A stretch of DNA of 64,000 nucleotides from Candidatus Nomurabacteria bacterium (GTDB taxonomy: Bacteria > Patescibacteriota > Minisyncoccia > Phycocordibacterales > UBA918): assembly GCA_020632075.1 (NCBI GenBank), contig JACKGH010000001.1, positions 936,470 to 1,000,469 on the forward strand. Reading direction: 5' to 3'. How positions within the stretch are numbered: position 1 is the stretch's first letter; each line of letters begins with the position of its first letter. The translations under genes and the position numbers were made by a program. Shown one piece after another: positions 36,007 through 52,810 of this stretch. The notes under the pieces were generated by a model. The model was not told the origin of the DNA. It made no database searches and worked only from the letters and a program-made list of their open reading frames with translations.

Positions 36007-36078
36007 GAGAAAGTACCCCAGGGTATTTTCTCTTGCTACGCAATTCACCTTAAAATTCGCTGGCAGACAGCTCCCAAA

Positions 36079-36633: not shown

Positions 36634-36646
36634 TTGCTTTGGAAAA

Positions 36647-36684
36647 GAAACGGCCGGCCCCGAAGGGGCCGGCCGTTTCTTTTC
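36647..36684 (+). terminator. intrinsic terminator after rplE (rpsN does not follow)
   Basis: gaaacggccggcccc-gaag-gggccggccgtttctttt. Confidence 0.7.
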
Positions 36685-36736
36685 TATACATACAAAAACT
36701 CCCCCAAACTGGGGGAGTGAGAACCTGACAGGTTCT

Positions 36737-37342
36737 CTAGGAAAGGTGCTGTCCGACAAACCGGTCGAGGGCATGCATGAGTGACTCACGGCCACGTTCA
36801 GCGCAGCCATCAAGGAATGCGCGGTAGTCGTCGCAAGTGACGGTGTTGATGTCTTCAGGTTGCTGGCGGTCAGTCACGGTGCCAGCATGGTCGTTCTCGT
36901 ACGAGCGCAGCGTCGTGTGCAAGTAGGCGAGCAGTGCCTCGGCTGTCGGATAATCCCACTGTTCTTCTCCGGGGTTCAGGCGAGGTTGGTTGCCCCACGT
37001 GAGCCAGTACTGAATGGCCGGAAGTGGTATCAGGCCAGCTTCACGGCAGCAATCCTGGATCTCTGGCGTGATGCCTGCGGTCGATGTCTCGGTGATCTGA
37101 TCTGGCGGCAACGCGTTTTTAACGGGGACGAATTCCCGATTGTTTGCCTCTGAAATTTGGGTTATCCGCTCGACAGCGGGCGTACCGTCTGCCGACAGGT
37201 AACGGCTCGTTGTCACTCTCATGCCGAGCTGGTCAAACAGGTTGGGGATCTCTTTGGTCGTGTCTTCAGACATCGATTCTATTCTCCATAGTTGTGTTGA
37301 TCGTCCGTAGGTATTTAAAACATTTTTTGATCCATTCCGCAA
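36737..37342 (-). CDS. hypothetical protein
   Basis: A 201-aa ORF with no family recognized. Confidence 0.35.
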   Translation of the reverse strand: MRNGSKNVLNTYGRSTQLWRIESMSEDTTKEIPNLFDQLGMRVTTSRYLSADGTPAVERITQISEANNREFVPVKNALPPDQITETSTAGITPEIQDCCREAGLIPLPAIQYWLTWGNQPRLNPGEEQWDYPTAEALLAYLHTTLRSYENDHAGTVTDRQQPEDINTVTCDDYRAFLDGCAERGRESLMHALDRFVGQHLS

Positions 37343-37383
37343 TGATACAAAAACCCCGGCAAGTATTGCCGGGGTTGTGAAGG

Positions 37384-38448
37384 TTAAGATTCTGCTTGTT
37401 CGGTCAGCCTGATTCGCGTTTGTGCGAGGGTGCCGATCTCTGCTACAGCTGCGAAGGCTTGCTGTAGTTCATCATCAACCTTGGTGAGGTCTTTCCAGTA
37501 TCCAGACAGATCTGACGGATCATTGTCTTCAAGCTGAGTACGAGCCTCGGTGATCACGTCTTCGATATGATCACCATTAGTCGGATGCCGAAGCGTTTCG
37601 ATCATTGTTTCGAGGGACTGTAGATCCTGCTGCACCTTTTCAACGCGTGCCACAACTGTGGCCGGGTCGCCTGTTTGGTGCAGTGTCTCTATCACATTCT
37701 CCTCGAGCACACTCAGCTCATCGAGCTTTGCTTGCAGATCATTCAGCTTATCGCGTAGATCGCGGTATAGGGTAGACAGACTGATGAGTTCTTCTGCATC
37801 TTTTACCGCAGCACTCACATCTACTTCGAGCTGCCATACACGTGCCAGTTCTTCCGTGTAAGCGAGATACCTTTCAGCGATCAGTCCACGGACTTTGGCG
37901 ACATTTTCTTCAGCGTTTCCGAGTGTCCGGAACGAAGTGCGAGATCCTTCGAGCACATCGGTCAGATCGCTCAGTACAGCGTAGACCCCGTCTTTCTCCA
38001 TACGCAACTTCGGCCGCTGCTCGTTCAACAGCTTCAGATGATCGTTTAGGGTACGAGCTGCGTCGAAGGAAAAGTACCGGTCGATCACTTGCTCGCCAAG
38101 CTCGTATCGATCGACTTGCCGCCGAAAAAGTGCGGTTGCGAGAGCTCCGACGACTGTGATCAGAAAGCTAAGGAGACTCACGCCGACCCAGACGAGCATA
38201 TCGCTCGGCTGGTCGGTCAGATCGACTCCCATGCTTTGCGGCAGCCAGCCGCCGAGCATATCGTAGTAGTTGCCCGTCAGAAACGGGGGGTCGACCGCGT
38301 ATGTGTCGAGAGCGATCAGAACGACCATAGCGATGCTGTAGAGTCCGATCGCCAGAAAAGCCCAGGCCAAGGTCTTGGTGAGTGTGTACACACGATTCTC
38401 CTTTTGGTGGTTGCGTAAGGTGCTCAAAAGAGCAAACTGGCAAAACAA
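37384..38448 (-). CDS. membrane-anchored coiled-coil protein
   Basis: N-terminal TM helices (AWAFLAIGLYSIAMVVLIAL; VWVGVSLLSFLITVVGALATALF) followed by a long heptad-like region (LRDKLNDLQAKLDELSVLEEN...). Confidence 0.45.
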   Translation of the reverse strand: MFCQFALLSTLRNHQKENRVYTLTKTLAWAFLAIGLYSIAMVVLIALDTYAVDPPFLTGNYYDMLGGWLPQSMGVDLTDQPSDMLVWVGVSLLSFLITVVGALATALFRRQVDRYELGEQVIDRYFSFDAARTLNDHLKLLNEQRPKLRMEKDGVYAVLSDLTDVLEGSRTSFRTLGNAEENVAKVRGLIAERYLAYTEELARVWQLEVDVSAAVKDAEELISLSTLYRDLRDKLNDLQAKLDELSVLEENVIETLHQTGDPATVVARVEKVQQDLQSLETMIETLRHPTNGDHIEDVITEARTQLEDNDPSDLSGYWKDLTKVDDELQQAFAAVAEIGTLAQTRIRLTEQAES

Positions 38449-38509
38449 TACTATGTTTTCTTAATTAATCAATGCTTTGGCATAAGTTTATGGAGATACA
38501 GAAATACTA

Positions 38510-38537
38510 TTGACTTATGCAAAAAATTTAGTATAAA
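38510..38537 (+). promoter_or_regulatory. sigma70-like promoter TTGACT-16-TATAAA for the small gene at 38601
   Basis: ttgacttatgcaaaaaatttagtataaa, with an AAAGGAGA RBS before the ATG at 38601. Confidence 0.45.
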
Positions 38538-38600
38538 TTAGTTTTAGAAGTAAGCTGGATATGCCAGCAATACACAGCAACGCTCAACCAACAAAAGGAG

Positions 38601-38882
38601 ATGAGCATGGGGAATCCCGAAAAAAACGTGATCGACGCCGGCGACCAATTCCCGGGCGATTCGCATGATGACGAAGTTCAAAAGGGAGGCGGCGGTCGGT
38701 TTTTCTATCTGAAGGAGGCGACGACGTTCCTGATACCGGAAATGGGTGTCAGCAGTGCGTTGGTGCCGCTTCAGGTGCGGCTCAAGAAGTCGATCAGTCA
38801 GACCGGTCGACGCAATGCAGAAGACGGCGAAGCTCGCGTCTTCATCTGTGCGCAACGCACAACGCCGCTAGGTACTCCCTAG
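38601..38882 (+). CDS. small hypothetical protein
   Basis: 93 aa, with its own promoter/RBS and a downstream hairpin plus T7. Confidence 0.45.
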   Translation: MSMGNPEKNVIDAGDQFPGDSHDDEVQKGGGGRFFYLKEATTFLIPEMGVSSALVPLQVRLKKSISQTGRRNAEDGEARVFICAQRTTPLGTP

Positions 38883-38896
38883 CGGTGTTTTTTTGT
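38866..38896 (+). terminator. intrinsic terminator
   Basis: cgctagg-tactc-cctagcg followed by ttttttt. Confidence 0.5.
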
Positions 38897-38900
38897 ATAA

Positions 38901-38930
38901 AAAAGCCGGCGCGCAAGCGCCGGCTATGTT
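38901..38930 (-). terminator. intrinsic terminator for 38939..39370
   Basis: The minus strand reads agccggcgcttgcgcgccggctttttt. Confidence 0.5.
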
Positions 38931-38938
38931 CAACTCTC

Positions 38939-39370
38939 TCACTTTGCGTGAGGTTTGATAGTCATCATCATCCCTTGCCCGAGCTCGTAGAGCGTTTCGG
39001 AAAAGATGATCTGCTCGACAGGATCATCGATTAGTTCCTGGTAGGTGATGGTCACCTCAACCCCGGCTTCATCTTTGCGAGACTGCATGCCGTGGAACTC
39101 CTGCGCTTTTGTATCGTTGCGGGTGATGGTGATCCAGCGCGATGTGCCGTCGATCTTTTCGAGTCCGAGCACGATACCAGGTTGTACCTGCTCAAGCACT
39201 TGTACGAGCCGAGCCCGACGAGCTGCGTCGAGCTCTGCGTTTGTCGGTAGGTTCGCCAGAGAATCCCTATCGACACCTGCCACTATGAGCAGGACGCCGA
39301 GAATGAATACCACCGTTAAGGCAACACCCAAAGTGGTGAAAATCTTATTCATGTGCTCTTGTCGAGTCAT
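38939..39370 (-). CDS. small N-terminally anchored/secreted protein
   Basis: The start is taken at the internal ATG (MTRQEHMNKIFTTLGVALTVVFILGVLLIVAGV). Confidence 0.45.
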   Translation of the reverse strand: MTRQEHMNKIFTTLGVALTVVFILGVLLIVAGVDRDSLANLPTNAELDAARRARLVQVLEQVQPGIVLGLEKIDGTSRWITITRNDTKAQEFHGMQSRKDEAGVEVTITYQELIDDPVEQIIFSETLYELGQGMMMTIKPHAK

Positions 39371-39425
39371 GTTCGTCTCCTTGGCAAAGCCAAAAGTTGC
39401 GATAGTACAGAATTTTGCTTGTAAT

Positions 39426-39453
39426 ATAATACAACTTTTTAACAAAAAGTCAA
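39426..39453 (-). promoter_or_regulatory. promoter TTGACT-16-TATTAT (minus strand) for 38939..39370
   Basis: The minus strand reads ttgactttttgttaaaaagttgtattat. Confidence 0.45.
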
Positions 39454-39457
39454 TAAA

Positions 39458-39483
39458 ATGCCCGAGCTTTTTAGCTCGGGCAT
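39458..39483 (-). terminator. terminator of cassette gene P1 (conserved CCCGAGC/GCTCGGG hairpin)
   Basis: atgcccgagctttttagctcgggcat. Confidence 0.55.
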
Positions 39484-39516
39484 TAGTCTGCGTTGTGTTG
39501 CAGAAAGGGAACTTCT

Positions 39517-40326
39517 TCAGCGAGGTATGGTCGTGTGCCGCTTGCGCCACCACTCCTTAAAGGCAACGATCGGTCTCCGCCACTTTTCTCGGTGTACGAG
39601 TGCTCGGCGGTGTACACCTCGTTTGAACAGATGCCATTCTGTCTGTGGGAGTCGCAGTGCTCGAAAGCGTTTGACACGCATCGGTACTCGCTCCCACAGC
39701 GTGGGTAGAGCTCGATTGTTAAACCAATCTGCGATCTTTCCGAAAACCAGCTTGAGTTCGATATCATCAAGCATCGACAAGAGTCGCCACACAGCTCGGA
39801 AGACTGGCACCGCCACAAAGACCAGCACTGCAACGATCGCATCGTACACATCAAACGCATCAAAGATGAGTATGCTGGCGATGATCAGGATCGTCGCGAG
39901 TACACCGACCACGAACATGATCTGCTGGTGTTCGGTTTTGCCTCGCCACCATGCAGCCGGGCGTTCAAAAGTGTACTTTCGAAATGCTGCCGTCGCTGCT
40001 GCAGTTGCCTCTTCCTTGCCGTGCTTGATCGCTTCTTTTTCGTCTGGGTCGAGCAGCCAACGCGTAGGAATGAATAGCAGCCAGCGTAGCCACCGGATCG
40101 CAAAGGCTCTGGCCATGAGCGAAGGTGCGACTCGGGCGAGTGCAGCACCCCATTCAGGTAGGGTATCGAGCACGAATGCACGAAAGAAGGCTGGCGCCGT
40201 AAAGACGTCCCAGTAGTGATGCACTGCAAATGAGACTGCGCCAACGACACTCAATACAAGTAGTGTTCGCGGCAAAAACAACCAGGTGACTCCTCGCAGG
40301 AGGAGCTCGCGTAGTATCTGTATCAT
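39517..40326 (-). CDS. paralogous membrane protein P1 (novel family; F..TLPxW and ERPxxWW motifs)
   Basis: 269 aa: an N-terminal amphipathic segment, TM helices, FVLDTLPEWG, FERPAAWWRGK, and a basic C-terminal tail. Confidence 0.55.
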   Translation of the reverse strand: MIQILRELLLRGVTWLFLPRTLLVLSVVGAVSFAVHHYWDVFTAPAFFRAFVLDTLPEWGAALARVAPSLMARAFAIRWLRWLLFIPTRWLLDPDEKEAIKHGKEEATAAATAAFRKYTFERPAAWWRGKTEHQQIMFVVGVLATILIIASILIFDAFDVYDAIVAVLVFVAVPVFRAVWRLLSMLDDIELKLVFGKIADWFNNRALPTLWERVPMRVKRFRALRLPQTEWHLFKRGVHRRALVHREKWRRPIVAFKEWWRKRHTTIPR

Positions 40327-40365
40327 GCGTCTCTCTCCTCGAGAGTGTTTGTGAAGAACTATTAT

Positions 40366-40394
40366 GATTATGTCACATTTTGCTAGAAAATCAA
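40366..40394 (-). promoter_or_regulatory. promoter TTGATT-17-ATAATC (minus strand) for P1
   Basis: The minus strand reads ttgattttctagcaaaatgtgacataatc. Confidence 0.45.
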
Positions 40395-40401
40395 TAAAAA
40401 A

Positions 40402-40427
40402 GCGCCCGAGCAGTCCATGCTCGGGCG
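40402..40427 (-). terminator. terminator of cassette gene P2
   Basis: gcgcccgagcagtccatgctcgggcg abuts the stop codon. Confidence 0.55.
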
Positions 40428-41240
40428 TTAGTCTTTGAGGGTGATCATGATCTCGATCTCTAGCACTTCATCTATTTTTTGATGAAGGATCTCCATGAGT
40501 CGGACACGATCATCCAGATTTTTTGCGGTGTTCAGTTTTAGTTCTGCTGCTTTGGCGTGAATCTTTCTCTGGCGCAGCAGCATCGCGCGCAGATTTTTCC
40601 ATTTACGTTTGACTCGCTCTTCAGGAGCGGTGAAGCGATTGCGGACATTGGCAAAGCCTCGCTCGATGCGGTCGACTAGCGCTCCGGCACCGATCCTCGG
40701 CACCACGAACCTGAACGCGCCGACCAGCATTTGCTTCAGAATTGCCAGGGGGATGAGCAGCAAGCCCAAGAAGTGCAGGCTCGGTATCGATATGATGATC
40801 GCACCAATGCCTGCTGCCACCAATATCTTTCCGGTTAGGGTGAGACTTTTCCACCAAAGAACAGGACGTTCAATCAGGTGGTACTTTGCTCGTGCAAAGA
40901 CGTGTCGTTTCCGATGACGGAACCGCAGCTTGTACTCCTTCGCGAGGAAGTGTAAGCCGAGGTAGACTGCGAGCAGCCTAACCGACTTTTTCTTGGCAGC
41001 GTTTGAGATGGCTACTGCAGCTTTCGGGGCGAATTTGACCGCCAGCTTTACACCAGCCTGCCACCACTTAGGTAGTGTTTTGAGCACGAATTTCTTCAGT
41101 GCCACTCCGATGGTGGGGACGTCATAGAGCATCCATGCCACTCCACCGATGATCAAAAAGACGATGATCAACAGAATGATGCGAGGCCGCAAGAGCCAGA
41201 CGATAATTCCCTCAAGGAGGGAAGCGAGTAGTCGCAACAT
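40428..41240 (-). CDS. paralogous membrane protein P2
   Basis: 270 aa: LLASLLEGIIVWLL, FVLKTLPKWW, IERPVLWWKSL, and a basic C-terminal tail. Confidence 0.55.
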   Translation of the reverse strand: MLRLLASLLEGIIVWLLRPRIILLIIVFLIIGGVAWMLYDVPTIGVALKKFVLKTLPKWWQAGVKLAVKFAPKAAVAISNAAKKKSVRLLAVYLGLHFLAKEYKLRFRHRKRHVFARAKYHLIERPVLWWKSLTLTGKILVAAGIGAIIISIPSLHFLGLLLIPLAILKQMLVGAFRFVVPRIGAGALVDRIERGFANVRNRFTAPEERVKRKWKNLRAMLLRQRKIHAKAAELKLNTAKNLDDRVRLMEILHQKIDEVLEIEIMITLKD

Positions 41241-41277
41241 GATTCCTCCTAAAGAGACTGTGAAGAACTATGTTTAT

Positions 41278-41305
41278 ATTATAGCATAAAAATAGAAAAA
41301 ATCAA
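41278..41305 (-). promoter_or_regulatory. promoter TTGATT-16-TATAAT (minus strand) for P2
   Basis: The minus strand reads ttgattttttctatttttatgctataat, then an AGGAGG RBS. Confidence 0.5.
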
Positions 41306-41312
41306 TAAAAGA

Positions 41313-41336
41313 CACCCGAGCATCATTGCTCGGGTG
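41313..41336 (-). terminator. terminator of cassette gene P3
   Basis: cacccgagcatcattgctcgggtg abuts the stop codon. Confidence 0.55.
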
Positions 41337-42155
41337 TTAGTCTGTCTCTTCAACAGTTTCCTGTTTGAGGGCTTTAGCTGCTTTTGCGGCGGTCTGCTTA
41401 TCGCGCCAGGCGCGAATGTGTGTACGAACGACAAGACTCTTCTTGTCGAGCCAACCTTTGATCTTTTCGGTTGTGACGAAATGATGGGTGGCTAAGAAGT
41501 GAATACACCTTGAGTGTTTGACCCAGTTTGGAACAAGGTTGCTCAAAAAGGGCGCGACTCTATCGTGGACAAAGCCAGTGATTGCTGCTGACGTAAACGC
41601 CGGAGCAAATTGCTGAATGATCCAGAGGATAACGCCTGCGATGGAGCGCCAGAAGAAAAATATCGCATAGAGGACAGCTTCAGTCTTTGAAAAGTATGGA
41701 CTGATAGCCAAGACGGTAAGTGTCGCCAGGGTCAGTGTCGACACGATAATCGTGCGGGTGCGCGGTGACTTCCGGCGCCACCAAAGCTGCGGCCGTCTGA
41801 TCGTGTACTTGTGTGCTGCTCTGATCGCTCTGTCCTTGCTGGCCAAGATCTGTCGCTTTTCTTCGCGACTGAGATAGCTCAGTATGACAAAGGCCAGAAA
41901 TGCTCGCAAATACTTCGAGGCGAGTGCTCGTGGTATGAGCGGTAAGCTCGACTTGATCGTGAGCTTGATCCACTGTGGGAAGGTCTTGGTAGCAAAGGCT
42001 TTCACCGAGGTGAAAAATACCGGGGTGAAAAGAATGTGCCAAAATGCCATGGCGACACCGACTGCGGTCAGGAAGACCGTGACCCAGATAATGCCATGGA
42101 GTGAGATTGCCCATGCTGCGATGCCCTCAAGGAGGGCAGCGATAGCTTTGCGCAT
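41337..42155 (-). CDS. paralogous membrane protein P3
   Basis: 272 aa: AIAALLEGIAAWAI, FATKTFPQWI, IRRPQLWWRRK. Confidence 0.55.
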   Translation of the reverse strand: MRKAIAALLEGIAAWAISLHGIIWVTVFLTAVGVAMAFWHILFTPVFFTSVKAFATKTFPQWIKLTIKSSLPLIPRALASKYLRAFLAFVILSYLSREEKRQILASKDRAIRAAHKYTIRRPQLWWRRKSPRTRTIIVSTLTLATLTVLAISPYFSKTEAVLYAIFFFWRSIAGVILWIIQQFAPAFTSAAITGFVHDRVAPFLSNLVPNWVKHSRCIHFLATHHFVTTEKIKGWLDKKSLVVRTHIRAWRDKQTAAKAAKALKQETVEETD

Positions 42156-42194
42156 GCAGCCTCCTTATAGGAACGATGTGAAAGAACCGGAAAT

Positions 42195-42222
42195 ATTATA
42201 GCACAAAAGTGAGTAAAATCAA
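42195..42222 (-). promoter_or_regulatory. promoter TTGATT-16-TATAAT (minus strand) for P3
   Basis: The minus strand reads ttgattttactcacttttgtgctataat, then an AAGGAGG RBS. Confidence 0.5.
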
Positions 42223-42327
42223 TGATATGAAGATAGCAGAATAGATGACTGAAACATTGACTTTTTTACAAAATATGTAATAATACTTCAGGTTCTTTAA
42301 CGTTGCTCAAAAACCGTAGGAGGTAGC

Positions 42328-43278
42328 ATGGCAACAGCTCAGCAAGCAGCGGCAGCACAGCCGCAGGCACGTCGCCAGGGTCCGGGAGCGATTTCTCGCT
42401 TTGTGAGAACTCCCTGGATCAACAACAAGTACTTCTGGCTTTTCGTCAGTACGCTGGTTGCGTTCGGTATCTGGAACCGGTGGAGCTTCTCGCTCACACA
42501 TGCGTTCAAGGAGATTCTCATCAGCATTTACCAGATGAATGAGTCGGCCGACTGGTCGACGATCTTCTCGGCTCATGCTGGAGAGATCATGACCATGATG
42601 GGGATTCTGGGCGTCGTGCTCGGACTCTCCATCTGGTTCGTAGTCTATCAGGTGCGCAGAGAGCAGCATATGAAAGCGATTCGTGGCGCACTGTTTGCCA
42701 TGTCGGTGGCTATCATGCTGATCATCTACGCCTGGAGTAAGGGGATCATTCAGGGTGAGTGGTATGACGTCTTCTTGTTGACGGTCGTCGGTATCCTCAT
42801 CATCGGTCTCACTGGTTTTGGTGCCTGGATGGTCGGTATCGCGATCAATGGCCTCGATTGGGGTCATTTTGCCACCGTAATGATCGGTGGCTTGGTCGGC
42901 ATGCTGATTTTCGTAGCCGCCCCATCCATGCCCATCCTTGCAGACTGGTGGTTCGAGCCGAGTCGTGAAAATATCTCGGTGTATGTACAGATCGTGCTCG
43001 TGCTCTGGCTGACTGCTGGCTTTCGTGCCAAGAAGTTCGAACTGGCAGCGACTGGTCAACGGACCATCAGTTCGTCGAGTGGCGGTGTCACTATCCAGGA
43101 CTTCGGTCGTGATGCTGAGCAGGACTTGCATGCAGGTCACGATCATCATACCCACGATGAGCCGTTCGATCTGGGTAGCATCGGTCATGATCACGACGAC
43201 CAGCAGCTGCTCGAAGATGGCGACATCGTTGACCAGCAGCTGCTGGATCGCGATGACGATGACGACGATCGCCGGTAA
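42328..43278 (+). CDS. polytopic membrane protein with His/Asp-rich C-terminal tail
   Basis: 6-7 TM helices. The tail reads DLHAGHDHHTHDEPFDLGSIGHDHDDQQLLEDGDIVDQQLLDRDDDDDDRR. Confidence 0.5.
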   Translation: MATAQQAAAAQPQARRQGPGAISRFVRTPWINNKYFWLFVSTLVAFGIWNRWSFSLTHAFKEILISIYQMNESADWSTIFSAHAGEIMTMMGILGVVLGLSIWFVVYQVRREQHMKAIRGALFAMSVAIMLIIYAWSKGIIQGEWYDVFLLTVVGILIIGLTGFGAWMVGIAINGLDWGHFATVMIGGLVGMLIFVAAPSMPILADWWFEPSRENISVYVQIVLVLWLTAGFRAKKFELAATGQRTISSSSGGVTIQDFGRDAEQDLHAGHDHHTHDEPFDLGSIGHDHDDQQLLEDGDIVDQQLLDRDDDDDDRR

Positions 43279-43408
43279 CCGGTAAGGAGTAACAACCTGG
43301 CACAAGGAAGTGCCAAGCCCGTCTAAATGACGGGTTTTTTCTTGTCTCAACTTTCAGTTTAAAACAAAAAATCGCTGGCAGACGTGTGTCTACCAGCGGG
43401 TGGATATG

Positions 43409-44095
43409 CTAGATTCTTTCTCTTATTCCTCCACGACGACTCCTGAACGTTACAGGGATCTTCGTTTTTGGAGTAACGACTGCACCAGTGTCGCCGGGTT
43501 TGTCGGCTTCTTCGTCCATCTCTGCGAGCGTGCTTGCGAATTCCTGCAGGCCTTCAGGCAGTTTGCCGCTGGTGTCCAGCAATGCTTCCAAGACCGCGTC
43601 GCGAACCTGCAAAATAAGCGAGTCGTCAGGATCGTCGGTCGAGAGCAGGTCCCGATACAGCGCCTGGTTGAGTCTCTCGGCCTGGTCAGTGTATTGCTTC
43701 AGTACATCTCGCGCCACTGCGATAGCGTCTGCTTGACGTTGCTTCTGCCCATCGCTTGCTGCTTGCAGGTCTGCCTTAAGGCTCATGTTCTCGTTCTCCA
43801 GATTGATCATCCGGAGTTTGTCGAGCTCATCGTCGACCAGGTCACGCAGCCAGTAGCGCACGATGACGAGCACTGCGAGTGCTGCCGGTACTGCCAGGAT
43901 GGTGATGGTTGCCCATGGGTGGGCGGCCAGCCAACCGAACGGATCAGCGTAGTAGGTCGACATGGCGCCGGTCACGGCATTGAACTTCTCACGGATACCA
44001 GCGATCGACACCAAGCCGAAGTGCAAGCCGATAGCGGTAGCGATAGCACCGAGAATAACGAGCAAGCCGAAATTTCTCAGAAATTTTGCCAACAT
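43409..44095 (-). CDS. membrane protein with cytoplasmic coiled-coil region
   Basis: 228 aa with two N-terminal TM helices. Confidence 0.45.
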   Translation of the reverse strand: MLAKFLRNFGLLVILGAIATAIGLHFGLVSIAGIREKFNAVTGAMSTYYADPFGWLAAHPWATITILAVPAALAVLVIVRYWLRDLVDDELDKLRMINLENENMSLKADLQAASDGQKQRQADAIAVARDVLKQYTDQAERLNQALYRDLLSTDDPDDSLILQVRDAVLEALLDTSGKLPEGLQEFASTLAEMDEEADKPGDTGAVVTPKTKIPVTFRSRRGGIRERI

Positions 44096-44281
44096 GGCGT
44101 TCTCCTTCTGGGTGGGTGGAACAGTGTGTACAGCAAATGCTGTAGTTACAACTGGGCAAAATAATACCTAAAAAACTACGTTTGTAAATATTTTGAAAAT
44201 AAAAAAACGACCCAAGCTCATATAGAGCAAGGGCCGTCGTGAGAAGTGTGAGGCTCACGCCCCACGTTGGACTCAGGATGT

Positions 44282-45271: not shown

Positions 45272-45585
45272 GGATATTCCTCCGTTTTGCGGTTTACAGA
45301 AAGTCTTTGCTATTTCACGAAATAGCTTGAGTCCAATAGATTGAAATGTACTAGAGAACCCAAAGCTGCGGAGAACACTATCATACTTTAAAAAAATGTC
45401 AACCCCTTAGGAGGGGTTTGTGGTTGGGGGGGTAACTGGGCGGCGGGCGAAGCCCGCCGCCCTCTCACGAAAAGAAAACGTCACAAAACATTGACAAATA
45501 CTAAATAAATGTTACTCTGTAAGGTAGGATTCTTTGTAAATTCACTATCTTTTTTACCATCGTCAAATTGACATAGGGGGTTGTT

Positions 45586-46899
45586 TTGGAAACTCAAAAC
45601 ACAAATGTAGTCGAGTCGGAGACAGAAAAGTCCTCCGAAGAGGCAGGCCTGCTGACTGAAGCCGTCGAAGAGACGAAGAGTGTCGGCTGGGTTGCGAAGG
45701 CGTACGTGGCATTGGTGGCAACTCTCACTGGTGTGGCAACGTACTATTTTGGTCCGGTCGGACTGATCACGCTGCTCCTCATGGGGCTGATGTCTCGCAT
45801 CGACGCTGGTGATCCGATGTCGATGGCTATCGATAAATGGGTGTACAAGCTCATCGTGAGCACGGTCACCCTACTGCTCGTCTCTGTCTATGGCTTCTGG
45901 TTCCTGCCGCTCTTGCTTCTGCTTGGCGGTCGGAAGCTGCTCGGGTGGGTTGCTACCCTCCAGGGGCAGTTCTGGAAACTCGTGTTGATCGCGATTGCGT
46001 ACAAACCGTTCCCGATAGGGCTAGCCAACAAGCTGGCCTCTAGGAAATCAGTTGAGGAGGTGTTGTTCGGTTCGCCGGCAGACGCCAAGTCATTCCTTCG
46101 CAGTGATGCATGGAATACAACGAAGGAAATGTACGACACGCTGATGCCAGAGCAACAGGGCGATCAGTCTACGTGGGCCAACGTGCTTTCGTATGTGATC
46201 GTTCTCGGTGTCATTGTGCCTGGTACTATCTGGGCAGCTGACTACCACTGGGATCATGTCCTGAAGTTCTACGATCTCCTGTCGGAGTTCGTTTCAGGCA
46301 CGCTCTCGGGTATCGGCGGTGCGGTCTTGGCGATCGGCAGTGGTCATATTCTCGACCTATTTGGCGAGACCTGGAACCTGCTCAAGGTGGTAGCGACAAC
46401 AATCAGTGCTTTTATCGGCCTGATTATCTTCGACTTCACGATCAACATCTTCTTGCACCTGATGATCCTCATTGGTGCGGAACGGCTTTACAGCAAAAGT
46501 GAGTCTTTCCGTAACTGGGTGCATCGGACGTTCAATCAAGTCAAGGAGCTCTTTAAGAAGAGTAAGGGTGGCATCGTGACGTTCCTCCGTCGCCAGCCTC
46601 GGCTGGTGCAAGGGGCTTTGATCGCTATGTCTGGTCCGGCAGTGCTGGTTGTTGCTATGGTCATCTGGCTGTGGCAGGTCGCAAGGCTCTTCGTCTTGAA
46701 GAAGCTGGCGATCGTGCTCATGAAACAGCCGGTCTTGAAGGCTCGCAAGAGCGAACGGCTTCGCAACTTCCTGTCAAAGCAGCGAGAAAATCTGCTGGCA
46801 CGGATCAAGGGCGAATCGTCCACCAAAGAAGATGTTGTAGAACTGTCACCTGACATGCCTGCACATAGAGAAGCGGAGAACAGCTCGGTCTCGAAGTAA
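45586..46899 (+). CDS. polytopic membrane protein
   Basis: A 437-aa protein with many TM helices and an unknown family. Confidence 0.45.
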   Translation: METQNTNVVESETEKSSEEAGLLTEAVEETKSVGWVAKAYVALVATLTGVATYYFGPVGLITLLLMGLMSRIDAGDPMSMAIDKWVYKLIVSTVTLLLVSVYGFWFLPLLLLLGGRKLLGWVATLQGQFWKLVLIAIAYKPFPIGLANKLASRKSVEEVLFGSPADAKSFLRSDAWNTTKEMYDTLMPEQQGDQSTWANVLSYVIVLGVIVPGTIWAADYHWDHVLKFYDLLSEFVSGTLSGIGGAVLAIGSGHILDLFGETWNLLKVVATTISAFIGLIIFDFTINIFLHLMILIGAERLYSKSESFRNWVHRTFNQVKELFKKSKGGIVTFLRRQPRLVQGALIAMSGPAVLVVAMVIWLWQVARLFVLKKLAIVLMKQPVLKARKSERLRNFLSKQRENLLARIKGESSTKEDVVELSPDMPAHREAENSSVSK

Positions 46900-47046
46900 C
46901 ACTCAACGTAAACGAGAGAGAAAGTATTGTGAAGAAGCAGCCCGCGGTGGGGAACACCGCGGGCTTTTTGTTTTTGTATGAAAAATAGAAAGTGGCCAAG
47001 AGCGTTGCTCTTGGCCACTGAAGGTGCTGGTGAGGCGAAGCTGTGT

Positions 47047-47553
47047 TCAGCAGATCTTGTCGATCAGCTTCGATGCAGTCTCTTTGATGCTTTGGAAGGT
47101 GTGCTTGATCTTGTCGATCAAGATCTGACGCGCTTCTTCGCGGGACAGGAACTTGTCCTTGTCTGTCACGATGTCATGGAACGGCTGCTGTGCCGCGATG
47201 AGTGCAGCACGTTGTTCATCGGTGACTTTGCCGAGTGCGACCATCGCGTCTGCGAAGTTGTCTTTGCTACGGTTCTCCCAGATGTTGATTGTCTTCACAG
47301 GCGCGAGTACTGCCAGAATGGCAAGGCCGAAAATTTTGACAGAGCCGTAGAACATTGGCCAGAACGATTTGCTCAAGAGCAGCAGAAAGAAGGCCAGTAA
47401 GCCTTTCAGGCCAAACGCGAAAATCAGAAGTGCCACGAATGCCGCAGTTCCAGCCAGAATGACCTGACACTTGGTGAGGCCGTAGTACAGCTTCTTCTCG
47501 ACGACAGTTGCTTCGACGGCAGAAGTAGTGTCCTGAGTGGTCTCGTCGACCAT
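47047..47553 (-). CDS. small membrane protein
   Basis: 168 aa with two TM helices. Confidence 0.4.
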   Translation of the reverse strand: MVDETTQDTTSAVEATVVEKKLYYGLTKCQVILAGTAAFVALLIFAFGLKGLLAFFLLLLSKSFWPMFYGSVKIFGLAILAVLAPVKTINIWENRSKDNFADAMVALGKVTDEQRAALIAAQQPFHDIVTDKDKFLSREEARQILIDKIKHTFQSIKETASKLIDKIC

Positions 47554-47662
47554 GCTTCACCTCCTCGGTGATGGTTGTTTGAAAGAATCCTGTGTAAATA
47601 ATAACATAAATAACACTTTTGTCAAAGATTTATGTAAGAGTTACACCGCAATTATTTCAATT

Positions 47663-47694
47663 AAAAAGCTCCCAGCCGTGTGGCTGAGAGCTTT
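47663..47694 (-). terminator. intrinsic terminator for 47715..48390
   Basis: The minus strand reads aaagctctcagccacacggctgggagcttttt. Confidence 0.5.
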
Positions 47695-47714
47695 GGTTGC
47701 TTGAACCGCGAGGG

Positions 47715-48390
47715 TCAGAAAATCGGTGTGCTGATGCTCATTCCGACGACCCAGTGCGAATCCTCACGCTCGCGCATCGTGTACGTAGTCTCAAGGAATG
47801 TCAGCGTGGTGTCGCCGAGCGCGATGCTCGGTGCCAGGGAGAGTTCTCCGAACCAGACCTCCTCTTCGTACGTGGTGTCGTACCCGGCACGAATGCTGGG
47901 TGTCAGAGTCACGGTATCGAGCGAAAAGTCCTTGCTGACCCCACCGTGGAAGATGAAGCCGTTGCTGGCGCTGTCGTCGATGATCTTCCAGTACTCGACA
48001 CCGACGAAGCCGGACATGTCCATGAAGTCATGATCGATCCGCGCTGCAGCGACGATCGCATCGCCGGTCGTGTTGTTCATGTCCGGGATGTTGAACCAGC
48101 TGACCGACAGGTCGAGCGAGGTTCCTTCGTCGATCTCGATGATCTTCCCGACGGTACCGTCGATCTCCTCGAAGTCGATGACGTCGTTGAGAGCGAACCA
48201 GCCGTTGAGATAGAAGCCGCTGTCGTGTTCGACGTATGCGTTGGCTTCTCCGAGCGGGTTGTCACGCACCTCGTAGCCGTTGTAGACGTACTTGCTCTTC
48301 CCACCAAGGGAAAGCTCTCCCGACAAATCGGCCAGGGAGGTGAGCGGTGCGAGGATGAGAATTGCAGCTGCAATGATGATCTTGTTCAAG
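47715..48390 (-). CDS. signal-peptide protein with alternating beta-strand pattern and C-terminal Phe (MipA/OmpV-like outer-membrane beta-barrel candidate); TTG start
   Basis: A TTG start at 48388-48390 gives MNKIIIAAAILILAPLTSLA. The protein has alternating hydrophobic residues and ends ...SISTPIF. Confidence 0.4.
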
Positions 48391-48527
48391 AGCGTAGCAC
48401 TCCAGTAGATTTGGGCGAAGTGCCGTTGATTACTATATAACATATTTACAAAAATCAAGTATTTGGCATACTGATACTTTACAAAACATACTTTATGTAG
48501 TTTGATCTTACCTAGATTTTACGGTAT

Positions 48528-49655
48528 TTGCTGAAGGAGGCAATCTTGAAAGAATCACTACCTACTGTGGACAATCAAGTATTGGAAGCGGTGCAAGTTG
48601 TGAAGGAGACGTTCGCGTTTGATTTTTGGGGCACTGATGGCTCCAAGATACTGATCTGCTTTCTGCTCACACTCTTCCTGTTTATCTTGTCTGAGCCGGT
48701 GCGCGCATACCTGCGCAAACGAAACGGTGACGAGGGCAAGACGATCCGCTTGATGCAGGGGAAGGCTGGCTGGGTGTCGCTCGGGATCATCTTGGTAACA
48801 TCGTACGCTGCTGCGTACTACCTCAAGAATGCGATCGATGTGATCGAGATCCCCACCTATCTACTCGGCATCATTGTCTTGGTGCGGTGGATCAACGGTA
48901 TGATCCGTGGTCCGCTGCTCAAGGCAGCTAAGTTGATCTGGGATACGCAAACGAATGATCACTTGCGAAAGGTCGGCATGCTCGCCACGTATGCGGTGAT
49001 ATCGTTTGGGGTGTATTTGGCACTCAGTGTGCTTAGCTACAACATCCAGGATCTGGTCGATCTTGGTCTGCCTGACTGGGTAACAGCGACGGCATCGGCA
49101 CTGGTATTCTTGCCGTTCTTGCAAGCGTTGGTGCAAAGTCTCGCGCTCTCCAATGACCGCAAGATGGAAGTGGGTGAGTGGGTGAAGATCGGCGACGTCG
49201 TCGCAAAGCTTAAGTGGAGCACGTTGCGTGGTTTAGTCCTTGAGGACGCGGAAGGAGTTGAGGTGGTCATACCAAACTCCATAGTGGAGAAAAGTGAATT
49301 CCGCAATCTGAGCAAGCGTAAGCGCTGGCGTGATACGTTCACGTTCTATGTCAGTGCTCAGGTGCCACCGGCCGCTCTCAGTGAACTTCGTAGCAGTGTG
49401 CTCACGCATATTGCTCAAGACTCGGAGTGCAAGCCGCAGCGGTGCTGGTTTCAGCAAGAATATCCTGGCGTGATCACGTTGCGGGTAATCGTCGATATCG
49501 AACCGCCAAGGAATGCGCCAGATCGTGGCGCTCTCCGAGACGAGAAGTACGACAAGGTATTTCAGCTGGTGGGTACGCTGATCGACTCGAGTGGTCAGGT
49601 GAACATGTTTCAACTTCAGCCACCGATCACTGGCGCACTGCCGCAATTGCCGTAA
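48528..49655 (+). CDS. MscS-family mechanosensitive channel
   Basis: VGEWVKIGDVVAKLKWSTLRGLVLEDAEGVEVVIPNSIV matches the MscS beta-domain signature (GDxVxIG...G.VE.I.....IR..DG.....PNS), with TM helices upstream. Confidence 0.7.
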   Translation: MLKEAILKESLPTVDNQVLEAVQVVKETFAFDFWGTDGSKILICFLLTLFLFILSEPVRAYLRKRNGDEGKTIRLMQGKAGWVSLGIILVTSYAAAYYLKNAIDVIEIPTYLLGIIVLVRWINGMIRGPLLKAAKLIWDTQTNDHLRKVGMLATYAVISFGVYLALSVLSYNIQDLVDLGLPDWVTATASALVFLPFLQALVQSLALSNDRKMEVGEWVKIGDVVAKLKWSTLRGLVLEDAEGVEVVIPNSIVEKSEFRNLSKRKRWRDTFTFYVSAQVPPAALSELRSSVLTHIAQDSECKPQRCWFQQEYPGVITLRVIVDIEPPRNAPDRGALRDEKYDKVFQLVGTLIDSSGQVNMFQLQPPITGALPQLP

Positions 49656-49812
49656 GTTCGTTTGTCGACTGTTCGACGAAGCCCCGACCACATGGTCGGG
49701 GCTTTTATATTGACAAAATTGATTTTTATAGTAATTTTTCTGCAGCGTTTGTCGCTATTTAAGACAAAAAGTACACCTGTTCATAGACATCACTGTGTAA
49801 GGAGTGTGAAAT

Positions 49813-51027
49813 ATGCGAACAGATTCAAACCCAGCCAACACGGCAATTTCGCTGACGGTGGTAGCGGTAATCTTTCTATCGATCAGTCTGAAGATCTTCG
49901 CGCCGTATCTGACCCCGGTGGTCGTTGCGGCTACGATGGGTATTCTGACCTGGGGAGCGTTCACGCGGTTGCGTGACCTGCTTGCCAGATCGCGCTGGCT
50001 GAAACCGTATTCGCCTGCTGCCGCAGCCTTCATTATCTGGCTGCTGACGACGAGTGTGGTAATCCTGCCAGGGTTCTTCCTTGGTAATTACGCACTCGTA
50101 AGCGGTATCGGTACGATTCGCGAGTTTATTGGTGACTTCCTGCTCGAGCATGAGTCGATCAATGCCTTCCTGCAAACACAGATCAGCAATCTGGTTTCAA
50201 TGCTGCCTGAAGAGGTGGTGCCAACGGTGCAAGAACGTCTCGGCGAGTTTGCTACCGTCGGTGCGCTGTTCAGTGGCAAGATGGGTGGAGCCGCCTTTGG
50301 TTTCATCTCTTCGGCTTCGGTCAGTGTGCTCGGTGCGGTGGGGACACTCGCGTTCTCGCTCTTGTTGTTTTTCTTCGTACACACCGATGGACCTGCATTC
50401 CTGAAGTGGATGAACGAGAAGCTGTATCTGCGCGAGCGTGGCGATGATATGTTCACCGAGGTGGCTGGTCTGATCAAGGGCATTGTCCTTGGATCAGTAC
50501 TGGTGCAGTTTATTCAAGCTTCGGCGTATAGTCTGACGCTGTTTGGCATCTCGCTGTTCGTGGACATTCCGAACCTCGGTGTGTGGATCGCAGTCATCAT
50601 GATCGCAGGCACCATTATTCCGGTGGTCGCCACTGCCGGAATGGCAATCGCGGTGGGAATGCTGTTCTACTCGGGCGCATTCATCCCCGGCATTGTCGGT
50701 GTGGTGGTCATTGCGATCTTCTCTACCGTCGACGGGATCATCCGTGGCTGGTTCGTGGGTTCACAGGTAAAGATCCCGGTTTCACTGATCGTCTTCTCGA
50801 CGATCTTTGGCCTCGGCTTGTTCGGATTCGTGGGTTTGATCCTTGGTCCGGCAGTTGTCGCCTTGGGTAAATCAGCAGCCGGTCATGCAACTGAAGCGTT
50901 TGCCGAGTGGCGGCAGTTCAACGCTGAACGTGAAGCAGAAAAAATGCAGATCAAAGTCGAACAGCTCGATGAGACACGCAAGCTGCGCGAAACTATGGAG
51001 CGGCTTCTGGAAGCACAAAAACAGTAA
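49813..51027 (+). CDS. AI-2E family transporter (UPF0118/PerM-like)
   Basis: 8 TM helices with a characteristic topology; C-terminal LGLFGFVGLILGPAVVALGKS. Confidence 0.65.
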   Translation: MRTDSNPANTAISLTVVAVIFLSISLKIFAPYLTPVVVAATMGILTWGAFTRLRDLLARSRWLKPYSPAAAAFIIWLLTTSVVILPGFFLGNYALVSGIGTIREFIGDFLLEHESINAFLQTQISNLVSMLPEEVVPTVQERLGEFATVGALFSGKMGGAAFGFISSASVSVLGAVGTLAFSLLLFFFVHTDGPAFLKWMNEKLYLRERGDDMFTEVAGLIKGIVLGSVLVQFIQASAYSLTLFGISLFVDIPNLGVWIAVIMIAGTIIPVVATAGMAIAVGMLFYSGAFIPGIVGVVVIAIFSTVDGIIRGWFVGSQVKIPVSLIVFSTIFGLGLFGFVGLILGPAVVALGKSAAGHATEAFAEWRQFNAEREAEKMQIKVEQLDETRKLRETMERLLEAQKQ

Positions 51028-51138
51028 CGATGTATTCGATCGCCTTGGGGTAACCCGAGGCGATTTTTTATTTATAAACATGTAAAAAGGGCGCATGCGG
51101 ATGCATGCGCCCTTGGTGGTTGGAGAAATGTGAACTGA

Positions 51139-52314
51139 TCAGGCTTGCCGTGCTACCGAAGACTTGGCCGGTTCGGCGGGCTGCAGCTGTACTTCCATGA
51201 TTGGCGGCTTGTGCTTGGTGATCAGAGACAGGCTGCCACGAAGGGCCGCCAGGATACGATCGCGATCGGCAGTGATTCGTCCGAGCTTTTCGGCATCGAT
51301 CCTTGCCTGATAGACGTACCAGTGTTCGTCGACTTGGATCGAGAGCAGATCTCCCTCGAGCGAGAACACGGTTACCGTTGGACGCTTGCGAAACGCACGA
51401 TCACCAAGTCGCACTTCACCATCGTTCTCTTTGTCGCCTGGGTGCGCGATCTGCAGAAGCAGATTCTTGGCGTCTGCCGGCAGCATGCGCGATGGAACAG
51501 TGGTGCGGTAGGTTGTCTTGTAGGCCTGTTCGCCAACACCCCCTTCCGTCGTGACCTGCTCCTGGTCTACGAGGCCGTGGGCCGCGTTGACCATACGGGG
51601 CAGCATGGCACCGAGCTGTGCTTCGAGCACGGTGGACAATTGCGCGATGGCAGCTTCGCCAAACGGAAGTTCGGTCGGGGCTGCTGCCGGTTGCGGAATG
51701 CGGGATACGATCGACTCGATGATCTGATCGACCGGGATCGGCTTGAAGCTGGCGTCTCCCTTGGGGAGCTTGAGCGCTGCGAGGGCTGCTTCGAGACGTT
51801 CGGTCATAAGCGCCTTCGTCTCTTCGTTCCAGTTCCTCATCTCGTCTTCCAGCTGTTTGTTCCGGTCGATTGCCTTCGACAGTTGGAAGTGAAGCGATTC
51901 GTTGGAGGCGTTCAACTTTTGACGCTCTTCAATGAGATTTGCGATTCGCTCATCTGAGTCTCGTTCATTCTTGTCCATCTCCTCAGCTTGCTGATAGAGT
52001 CGCTCGTTGAGCGCCTTTTCGATTCGGCTGCTCGACACTGCGACAGCGATCAGGCTAACCACTGAGATACACACGACCAGGCTACCGAGGATGATCGTTG
52101 TGCCAGGGTGAGCAGTGACCACTTCGGTCGCGCGCTCCCACTGGTTGCGGGCAGGTTGAGTCAGTTCGGCGGTTTTCGTCTGCGCCAAGTTGATGGTATC
52201 TTGAACCGAAAGGCCCTTTTGTTTGGCGTACAGACCACCGATCAGTGCCGTTGTGATCCCTACGACCAACAGAAGCATCAATGCAAAAAAGCTTGCGAGT
52301 AGGATTCTTTTCAC
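51139..52314 (-). CDS. membrane-anchored coiled-coil protein (GTG start)
   Basis: 391 aa; N-terminal TM helices, a coiled-coil region, and an AAGGAGA RBS. Confidence 0.45.
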   Translation of the reverse strand: MKRILLASFFALMLLLVVGITTALIGGLYAKQKGLSVQDTINLAQTKTAELTQPARNQWERATEVVTAHPGTTIILGSLVVCISVVSLIAVAVSSSRIEKALNERLYQQAEEMDKNERDSDERIANLIEERQKLNASNESLHFQLSKAIDRNKQLEDEMRNWNEETKALMTERLEAALAALKLPKGDASFKPIPVDQIIESIVSRIPQPAAAPTELPFGEAAIAQLSTVLEAQLGAMLPRMVNAAHGLVDQEQVTTEGGVGEQAYKTTYRTTVPSRMLPADAKNLLLQIAHPGDKENDGEVRLGDRAFRKRPTVTVFSLEGDLLSIQVDEHWYVYQARIDAEKLGRITADRDRILAALRGSLSLITKHKPPIMEVQLQPAEPAKSSVARQA

Positions 52315-52420
52315 GTATTTCTCCTTGTATAGGAACGGGGGAGCTAAATGTCACCAAAAAGGTGGTGACGACCTGCGCAATTTTTACTGTATGTAAGGCA
52401 CCTTGTCAATGTTAGGTGTG

Positions 52421-52451
52421 GCGCGCGAGGCTTTAGCCGAGCGCGCTTTTT
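52421..52451 (+). promoter_or_regulatory. terminator-like hairpin plus T5 in the leader upstream of rpsN (possible attenuator or small-RNA terminator)
   Basis: ggcgcgcgaggctttagccgagcgcgcttttt; there is no plus-strand CDS upstream. Confidence 0.3.
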
Positions 52452-52624
52452 CTATTGCTTTTTATACATATTCTGGTATTCTTGCCCGCAAGACGAACGG
52501 TCATTGTTCTCATATATATGAGTGACCCGACGTTGAAGGTGAACACGCATGCGTGTAAGCCGGATTTATTCACGAGTAAGTCGTCGATTCTAGGCGATAC
52601 TGCTCACAATTTAATACTTGGTAC

Positions 52625-52810
52625 ATGGCTAAAAAGTCAATGATCATCAAGGCGCAACGAGCGCCTAAGTTCAAGTCACGTGTCGTACGACGCTGTACAC
52701 TTTGTGGACGTCCACACGGCTACCTTCGTGACTTCGGCATGTGTCGTATTTGCTTCCGTGAACAGGCACACGAAGGACATATACCAGGCGTAAGGAAATC
52801 ATCATGGTAG
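52625..52810 (+). CDS. rpsN: 30S ribosomal protein S14, zinc-binding type Z
   Basis: 61 aa; [23 protein letters not shown] has four Cys. Confidence 0.9.

Follow-up and report, generated by a model that had tools for sequence, protein, structure and literature searches.

The rplE-rpsN spacer of a Nomurabacteria genome: a 16-kb, envelope-rich island as probable cargo of an accessory-gene hotspot inside the split S10-spc ribosomal cluster

The window analysed here is a stretch of 64,000 nucleotides from Candidatus Nomurabacteria bacterium (NCBI assembly GCA_020632075.1, contig JACKGH010000001.1, positions 936,470 to 1,000,469), and the element under study is an island of 16 genes located within its ribosomal protein cluster, between rplE (ribosomal protein L5) and rpsN (S14). 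The island is probably the species-specific cargo of an accessory-gene hotspot that is maintained across the clade. The rplE open reading frame (ORF) ends at 36633 and rpsN starts at 52625, leaving a spacer of 15,991 bp. These limits agree exactly with those of the original prediction, made from the sequence alone, which described a 16-kb envelope island and missed that the site is a clade-wide hypervariable hotspot made by a split of the spc operon. The left flank was identified via the Pfam families Ribosomal_L5 and L5_C and the right flank, a protein of 61 amino acids (aa), via Ribosomal_S14. The same 16 genes were obtained with our own caller and in independent gene calls on public contigs.

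The variability of the site is apparent from the rplE loci of 80 species-level genomes of Paceibacteria (one genome per species), whose L5 proteins are 60-93% identical to that of the window. These 80 closest L5 loci all belong to metagenome-assembled genomes (MAG) of Patescibacteria, labelled Paceibacteria, Parcubacteria, Nomurabacteria, Kaiserbacteria and, in some cases, Saccharibacteria, the best match being 93%. Thirteen consecutive junctions of the ribosomal cluster were scored in 58-79 relatives and rplE-rpsN is the only expanded one: its median length is 1,200 bp and it exceeds 400 bp in 52 of 67 relatives, whereas the medians of the other junctions lie between -4 and 30 bp, with just one case above 400 bp. 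The distance from rplE to rpsN varies from 105 to 9,760 bp in the relatives, and the 15,991 bp of the window are the largest value; the window is also the most envelope-rich case of the hotspot. In ~15 species the site is empty and measures 105-380 bp. Empty sites of ~230-320 bp (L012, L014 and L016) appear to keep both a terminator-like hairpin and the promoter-leader described below.

The content of the gaps changes rapidly between species, while the flanks remain the same. The 195 ORFs found in the gaps form 172 BLASTP clusters, 158 of them singletons, and the Pfam families represented are a miscellany (GGDEF, aromatic lyase, glutathionylspermidine synthase, LemA, NDK, ROK and peptidase M23). 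Gaps are conserved at 93% rplE nucleotide identity, fully between L070 and L074 and partly between L041 and L046, and share nothing at 91% or below. Within the species of the window, all contigs carry the same island; strains with an alternative junction were not found, the exact rpsN and rplE proteins occurring only on contigs consistent with the window. Two relatives have IS200-type Y1 transposases in the rplE-rpsN gap, and the gap of L063 holds a 776-aa Laminin_G_3/Fib_succ_major surface protein.

The hotspot would be a consequence of the organization of the S10-spc super-operon, which appears to be cut between rplE and rpsN in this Paceibacteria/'Parcubacteria' branch, so that rplE ends in a strong terminator and the genes rpsN-rpsH-rplF and those that follow restart from their own promoter, with a leader that would mimic the S8 binding site. 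On its left side, the variable region is bounded by a bidirectional intrinsic terminator (36642-36684) that closes the rplE unit. It is a perfect hairpin with a 20-bp stem, flanked by an A-run and a T-run; its inverted repeat is 100% complementary, the minimum free energy of the 90 nt 3' of rplE is -59.7, and an equivalent hairpin is present in nearly all relatives examined. The right edge is the promoter of the rpsN unit (52455-52482, plus strand), for which an alignment of 26 loci gives a -35 element TTGCTT and an extended -10 element TGGTATTCT. This promoter is conserved (TTGACT/TTGCTT ... TGGTAtTGT) and, together with a leader of ~140 nt, occupies 52455-52624. Because a terminator follows rplE and a conserved promoter-leader precedes rpsN, the distal spc genes form their own unit, probably with S8 feedback. 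The spacer would then be transcriptionally insulated on both sides and flanked by some of the most conserved sequence of the genome, so that DNA could be gained or lost without upsetting the expression of the ribosomal genes. A second conserved element, TTTTTAGAAAGCAAACTGCTTTGCTTTCGG...GAGGCGGAGACATGTTTT, occurs in the first ~60 nt 3' of rplE in about ten relatives (L009, L013, L017, L019, L027, L033, L039, L040, L046 and L050) and is missing from the window; it may represent either a small RNA or a regulatory 3' end.

The leader contains a conserved element (52556-52613, plus strand) that is a candidate S8 operator. Its 3' hairpin (52574-52605) has 12 pairs, and 96.7% of the cells in the alignment are paired, versus 31-43% in slid controls. 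Compensatory changes are observed in eight of the 12 pairs, around an invariant core of G-C and U-A pairs and a bulged UA. The two strands of the hairpin (UAAGUC... and ...GAUACUG) are also found in the 16S rRNA of Escherichia coli, as GUUAAGUCAGAUG...CAUCUGAUACUGGC (verified), a segment that we take to be where S8 binds helix 21. Searched over 1.3 Mb, a covariance model of this element picks out a single site immediately 5' of rpsN in the window and in each of 37 relatives, with no further match; Rfam has no counterpart. With a conserved, covarying helix that carries the helix-21 core sequence, the hairpin is a candidate for a new S8 autoregulatory leader. In eight relatives (L012, L013, L024, L028, L032, L035, L037 and L062) the leader motif GGATTTAT is displaced to 129-225 nt upstream of rpsN, versus the usual ~55-110 nt, with extra sequence preceding rpsN; the extra segment looks alike in L028 and L032.

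In the spc operon of E. coli, S8 autoregulates its own synthesis via an mRNA mimic of 16S rRNA helix 21. The candidate leader resembles that system in the two 16S strands, the invariant G-C/U-A core, the bulged UA and the position upstream of the S8 gene. On the other hand, it lies in a dedicated 5' leader before rpsN rather than at the start of rplE, it belongs to a separate unit, and its function is predicted from sequence. S8 autoregulation is covered by an available survey (PMC3616713).

The island itself is a mosaic of at least two blocks. Homology with the closest relative, L007, ends at the end of rplE and resumes at rpsN, while homology with L009 and L010 resumes at the rpsN promoter (52454). 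Two internal patches nevertheless match L007, in the same order. One of them (41063-41306) covers the 5' part and the promoter of the middle member of three tandem paralogues (39517-42155, minus strand). The other (45264-45402, minus strand) covers the promoter, the 5' untranslated region and the first three codons of the gene for a substrate-binding protein (SBP), and is 72% identical to a segment that adjoins the rpsN promoter in L007. Because this patch runs in L007 via one hairpin straight into the rpsN promoter, the region 45403-52454 represents a single indel of ~7 kb, hereafter block B, of which the patch is the left edge. Block B is absent from L007 and is delimited by a three-way alignment, by blastn breakpoints and by terminator-like hairpins at 45401-45462 and 52418-52446. 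Its six genes encode membrane proteins of 437 and 168 aa, a beta-barrel protein, an MscS channel, an AI-2E transporter and a 391-aa protein. The gene body behind the shared promoter differs: in the window it encodes the SBP, whereas L007 has a secreted protein of 335 aa that is unrelated to it. This difference suggests that recombination took place in the start region or next to it.

The left block, with the paralogues and the promoter fragment that are shared with the nearest relatives, is the older one. The middle paralogue is 47% identical to the L007 copy and 30% identical to the L010 copy, with L5 identities of 93% and 85%, respectively; because of this disparity, the family is regarded as old at the site and fast-evolving. 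No other member was found in the gaps of the relatives, and a metagenome scan gave only a locus with the 2636-bp rplE-rpsN gap of L010, taken to be the same genome. The paralogues, 269, 270 and 272 aa long, correspond to the cassette array of the original prediction. They share 25-30% identity and are characterized by an N-terminal transmembrane (TM) segment, a conserved RPxxWW motif and central TM segments.

Scans with Pfam and PHROG revealed no integrase, transposase, relaxase or phage protein in the island; neither direct or inverted repeats flanking the island or block B nor a tRNA were found, and the ten function-unassigned proteins that were scanned gave no PADLOC match to defence systems. 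A prophage, a defence island and an integrative element were therefore rejected. The cargo would rather be gained, lost and replaced when incoming or duplicated DNA recombines by general or illegitimate pathways, with no site-specific element involved, and recombination may be guided by the conserved flanks and by short homologies such as the shared promoter and start-codon segment of the SBP gene. The organism probably lives attached to other cells, and the cargo would serve its cell surface, with roles in osmotic release (MscS), transport (AI-2E), solute capture (the SBP) and the display of fast-evolving anchored surface proteins.

An alternative origin is a vertically inherited, ancestral envelope cluster whose homology was lost by fast evolution, with the different sizes arising from deletion and tandem duplication and with little horizontal gain. 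The paralogue family favors such an origin, since the window, L007 and L010 all carry it at this site, with 30-47% identity versus 85-93% for L5, as do the native-like composition, the three-copy array (an expansion in place) and the gene order and topology of L007, which follow those of the left block of the window: a single-pass protein (minus strand), a paralogue (minus), a multi-pass protein (plus) and a secreted protein (minus). The gaps of the relatives, however, hold GGDEF, aromatic lyase, glutathionylspermidine synthase, NDK, ROK and IS200 transposase genes, and divergence cannot explain this cargo because the families are well known and clearly unrelated. Moreover, the site is empty in the ~15 species mentioned above, block B is cleanly present or absent and its edges are sharp, the 57% identical homologue of the SBP lies on metagenome sequence with other neighbouring genes, and the relatives of the beta-barrel belong to the Gcw_chp family. 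Purely vertical descent is thus considered unlikely. It is very unlikely that a site-specific mobile element targeting the spacer, such as an integrative element, a prophage remnant or a composite transposon, makes up the island or gave rise to it. The same site is repeatedly used across species, and the IS200-type transposases in two gaps belong to elements that insert beside hairpins, which also bound this site; yet the island of the window lacks the mobility genes, bounding repeats and tRNA listed above, its genes lie in both orientations with their own signals, and its composition is that of the window.

An assembly error in which a chimeric island was joined to ribosomal contigs was also considered, and is given next to no probability. 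Over the aligned parts, the window is matched at 100% identity by independent assemblies of three sequencing runs, by an NCBI MAG and by two ENA scaffolds. Contig L001 matches 36665-53189 at 100%, running from inside the rplE terminator through the island into rpsH, and contig L091 (99.76% identical) extends from the last island gene as far as secY. In the same run as L001, which starts at 36665, contig L096 ends at 36672, and the two overlap by 8 nt within the hairpin. The relatives share the architecture, and the composition is native-like. A chimera could be suspected from two facts: every short-read contig that bears rplE stops inside the hairpin just past that gene, and bases 1-79 of the public scaffold L005 are unrelated, high-GC sequence joined at another hairpin. 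The latter was judged to be a scaffolding chimera and not a strain variant; other short-read contigs also break at this second hairpin (45438-45462), which is perfect and GC-rich like the one after rplE.

Even so, several points weigh against species-specific cargo in a clade-wide hotspot, which is still the preferred reading. Because the short-read contigs stop in the terminator hairpin, the left junction relies on the window, on the 8-nt overlap between L096 and L001 and on the identical architecture of the relatives. Gene calling in the gaps of the relatives was crude, and where rpsN was missed some 'gaps' took in downstream ribosomal genes. Homology searches covered the barrel and the SBP, whereas the other genes are called orphans on the strength of profile libraries. 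The mechanism of recombination is inferred from one genome per species, with no alternative cargo seen in the same species, and any ongoing exchange is therefore putative. TM-like segments are found in 58 of 189 gap proteins of the relatives; because the envelope bias is not general to the hotspot, this theme may be lineage-specific or coincidental, and it is present in the nearest relatives of the window (L007, L009, L010 and L015). Finally, the G+C content at third codon positions (GC3) is higher in the island genes (0.57-0.79) than in the neighbouring translation genes (mostly 0.40-0.55), which could reflect foreign origin, expression-linked codon bias or a distinct class of accessory genes. 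The tetranucleotide composition of the island correlates with that of the rest of the window at r = 0.80, inside the range of other chunks, and a foreign composition was rejected on this basis. The genes at 1173-3873 are similar to the island genes.

The envelope bias of the window is clear. At least one hydrophobic segment, called with a simple 19-residue Kyte-Doolittle window rather than a dedicated predictor, is present in 14 of the 16 island products and in 22 of the 68 products from the rest of the window (Fisher p = 1e-4). The envelope theme of the original prediction and the predominance of orphans are therefore borne out by hydropathy and by the profile-library scans, whereas its count of more than 15 membrane or secreted proteins is reduced to 14. 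Eleven genes have no family assignment: nothing beyond weak matches of the coiled-coil type came out of the Pfam and NCBIfam scans, which covered all or most of them, and ten of the 11 were scanned against PHROGs and PADLOC with no match. Heptad-like segments were detected with a crude test in seven island proteins, five of which (genes 40428, 43409, 45586, 47047 and 49813) score above 90 or more of the 100 shuffles, in line with the several membrane-anchored coiled-coil proteins that had been proposed.

The island genes are mostly monocistronic, with their own ribosome-binding site (RBS) and, in most cases, their own promoter-like site and terminator. An RBS of the GGAG type precedes 15 of the 16 genes, versus about one third of the other called genes in the window. 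The island contains 43 terminator-like sites (15.6 +/- 3.5 in shuffles) and 18 promoter-like sites (10.9 +/- 3.7 in shuffles). When these are mapped by position, a promoter match is found at ~12-13 of the 16 genes and a downstream hairpin at 11, so the earlier statement that nearly every gene has its own promoter and terminator holds for the majority and goes too far in 'nearly every'.

The SBP gene (44282-45271, minus strand) encodes a 329-aa secreted protein with a cleavable-looking signal peptide and no lipobox cysteine. It matches the TIGR02122 (TRAP_TAXI) model with 18.9 bits (E = 5.4e-4) over residues 5-92 only, far under the cut-off of 84.35 bits, and has no Pfam match. A word-indexed search detected a single homologue (P0002, 57% identity), which itself matches TIGR02122 with 28.4 bits (7e-7) and, faintly, PF16868. 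This homologue lies on a metagenome contig whose neighbouring genes are unlike those of the SBP and include no permease. The best PDB matches of a two-sequence SBP profile are the TAXI structures 1us4, 8u79 and 9oz4 (E = 0.04-0.4). TAXI is thus the top match in three libraries, the N-terminal lobe is similar and the size fits (~320 aa); on the other hand, all scores fall far below the thresholds, so that a TAXI-type SBP is a consistent best guess and membership of the family is not established. As previously noted, no permease is adjacent, the neighbours being orphans. The fused DctQM permease of TAXI systems is missing both beside the gene and elsewhere in the window, where the multi-TM proteins scanned comprised no TRAP or ABC permease (they match DUF2339 or no Pfam family, SecY being separate). 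The proposed orphan, TAXI-like SBP therefore stands for its isolation and its best matches, and not for family thresholds.

The beta-barrel gene (47715-48389, minus strand) lies inside block B and encodes a 224-aa protein that carries a signal peptide and has Phe as its last residue. Translation starts at a TTG behind a weaker RBS, and the GC3 is the highest of the window (0.79). AlphaFold2 gave a usable model from a four-sequence alignment (the single sequence reached a pLDDT of 30 only), and this model is a 12-stranded transmembrane beta-barrel resembling NanC and KdgM, rather than a soluble beta-sandwich. Together with the Sec signal peptide and the C-terminal Phe, the model upholds the proposal of an outer-membrane-type barrel. 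The MipA/OmpV label, however, was rejected, no match being obtained even at E = 10, where the Pfam scan returns Gcw_chp (PF09694) alone.

The protein is best described as a distant member of the Gcw_chp superfamily. Its own match to PF09694 (14.8 bits, E = 0.029) is below the gathering threshold of 24 bits, and no NCBIfam model matches at E <= 1. A word-indexed search found only the protein itself and a profile search four proteins, whereas full phmmer against 1.8 billion representative proteins found 18 homologues, with E down to 4e-17. Most of them are ~225 aa long, and those aligned have signal peptides. Three barrel relatives and P0022 match PF09694 (1.5e-4, 4.6e-5, 4e-33 and 1e-50), two of these four matches (22.3 and 23.9 bits) lying just below the threshold; one Gcw_chp-type homologue is annotated as TIGR02001. 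HHalign aligns the subfamily of the barrel with the PF09694-matching relatives at a probability of 99.0% (E = 5.3e-18), and this profile-profile match and the 18 phmmer relatives establish the homology. The traits of Gcw_chp are also present: a signal peptide, a size of ~220-240 aa, a predicted transmembrane beta-barrel and a C-terminal aromatic residue. The protein departs from the family in its sub-threshold score, in its presumed-monoderm host and in its C-terminus, ...STPIF, which lacks the aromatic residue at -3 of the usual C-terminal signal, whereas most aligned full-length homologues end in aromatic-x-Phe/Trp. The subfamily to which it belongs is rare and divergent and is otherwise seen only on short metagenome contigs, those of the closest homologues being of 1-5 kb, and no relative was found in the rplE-rpsN gaps of the 80 related genomes. 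One barrel relative, P0021 (3570-4247 of the 5.3-kb metagenome contig L092), is placed between scpA and scpB, as a lone barrel among housekeeping genes.

The original prediction took the barrel to imply a diderm envelope, and a second, outer membrane in the lineage would indeed account for both the barrel and a soluble, periplasmic-type SBP. The 12-stranded structure, the Sec signal peptide and the C-terminal Phe are genuine outer-membrane features, and a cleavable signal with no lipobox is what diderms have. Patescibacteria are, however, regarded as monoderm (PMC12102498; bioRxiv 10.1101/2021.05.31.446380). The barrel gene is species-specific, being absent from the same site in the 80 related genomes, and lies inside the 7-kb indel that is missing from L007; it has 18 remote homologues only, and its C-terminus, start codon, RBS and GC3 are all atypical. 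Among the window proteins scanned (64 kb of the genome) there is no BamA, Lpt or Lol gene, the protein after secY having a sub-threshold LolA_3-like match (E 3.5e-4). One barrel gene does not by itself show two membranes; the diderm envelope is not supported and is held to be highly improbable. The barrel and the SBP that lacks a lipobox are diderm-style genes, most simply viewed as horizontally acquired cargo of a monoderm cell. It is a very doubtful idea that the barrel is a functional protein which a surface-attached symbiont with one membrane exports to the outer membrane of a diderm host, or to some outer layer of its own that has yet to be seen, as a pore that feeds the uptake proteins of the symbiont, including the TAXI-like SBP. 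If so, lineages would exchange host-interaction genes at the rplE-rpsN hotspot. In any case, a barrel of the outer-membrane type in a presumed monoderm is a small but concrete and testable oddity.

Flexible genomic islands at fixed sites are already known, such as the hypervariable region between rRNA genes in SAR11 and the integration hotspots of enterobacterial pangenomes. The rplE-rpsN site shares with them a fixed chromosomal position, highly conserved flanks, unrelated content between close relatives, no need for a dedicated integrase and, in the copies of this lineage, frequent surface-related genes. It differs in being located inside the otherwise near-invariant S10-spc cluster and in being kept across a class-level clade rather than within one species. 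In Gammaproteobacteria and Bacilli, the insertions analysed in ribosomal clusters are small and mostly placed between operons, one of them lying inside the rpoBC operon, between rplL and rsmC, and such insertions are reported to relax the selection for synteny (PMC8046335). In both cases genes can be inserted into a ribosomal cluster. The break described here, however, falls within the classical spc operon, comes with a promoter and a leader of its own and accommodates up to 16 kb of rapidly changing cargo. The literature consulted yielded no rplE-rpsN split or hotspot in Patescibacteria, no such leader and nothing relevant on Gcw_chp.

The syntenic block of ribosomal proteins, assumed to be compact, is a standard marker for placing and binning uncultured bacteria. 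In a large clade of Patescibacteria this marker block is halved by a fast-changing spacer of up to 16 kb that ends in assembly-breaking hairpins. The contigs of several relatives end right after rplE, and the hairpins are a practical cause of fragmented ribosomal marker blocks; the split therefore bears on marker-gene recovery and on contig-based phylogenomics. For organisms with obscure host interactions, the hotspot also offers a defined place to seek surface genes particular to each species, and the candidate S8 leader RNA is open to direct test.

The remaining features follow the order of the window. On the left flank, the rplE gene proper (36079-36633, plus strand) begins where homology to the relatives starts, at ~36079. 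Public gene calls place the start of L5 at a GTG at 35932, giving a 233-aa protein with a 49-residue N-terminal extension (35932-36078). With the start at 36079, the rplX-rplE spacer measures 179 nt, which is unusual given a median of 8 nt in the relatives; the start is probably mis-called, or this spacer contains an unrecognised element. The first island gene (36737-37273, minus strand) encodes a 178-aa orphan that has no hydrophobic segment, appears to be cytoplasmic and has no match in Pfam, NCBIfam, PHROG or PADLOC. It is followed by a 335-aa protein (37384-38391, minus strand) with two TM segments, a heptad-like segment at residues 191-242, weak coiled-coil-type Pfam matches only and a weak similarity (6e-9) to a gap protein of L015. 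A 91-aa ORF (38607-38882, plus strand), without TM segments, has an RBS, a promoter-like site and a terminator, its coding status being uncertain, and precedes a 143-aa single-pass membrane protein (38939-39370, minus strand), recognized by gene calls and hydropathy. Beyond the paralogues lies a 316-aa multi-pass membrane protein with no family match (42328-43278, plus strand); its His/Asp-rich C-terminal tail is present as first described, with 5-7 hydrophobic segments versus the seven TM helices claimed. The last gene before the SBP (43409-44095, minus strand) encodes a 228-aa protein with two TM segments and heptad-like segments at residues 82-155.

Block B opens with the 437-aa multi-pass membrane orphan (45586-46899, plus strand), which has a TTG start and no family match in the profile libraries. 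The 168-aa membrane protein (47047-47553, minus strand) has two or three TM segments and a C-terminal heptad-like helix, and its gene has the best promoter match of the island (11/12). After the barrel gene, the channel and the transporter that had been proposed are both above their Pfam thresholds. The MscS-family mechanosensitive channel (48546-49655, plus strand; 369 aa) matches the beta-domain of PF00924 (32.3 vs 20.2 bits), has four TM-like segments and matches NF007662 weakly. The AI-2E/PerM-family transporter (49813-51027, plus strand; 404 aa) covers positions 5-323 of 327 of PF01594 (62.6 vs 34.3 bits), with partial matches to the YtvI and YdiK models. The block closes with the 391-aa protein (51139-52314, minus strand), which has two TM segments and a heptad-like segment. 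A 17th call on the public contigs, a 38-aa ORF at 52409-52525, overlaps the conserved rpsN promoter and was set aside as probably spurious.

The right flank starts with the zinc-type rpsN (52625-52810, plus strand) and continues with rpsH, rplF, rplR, rpsE, rplO and secY. The absence of ribosomal protein L30 is a general trait of the candidate phyla radiation. The rpsE-rplO spacer (54784-54788) is of 3 nt and contains no L30 gene, which is consistent with the ribosomal protein set of that radiation. Directly after secY, the region 56671-59645 encodes a 16-TM DUF2339 protein and a thrombospondin type-3 repeat protein with the weak LolA_3-like match, and looks like another non-ribosomal envelope insertion in the cluster.

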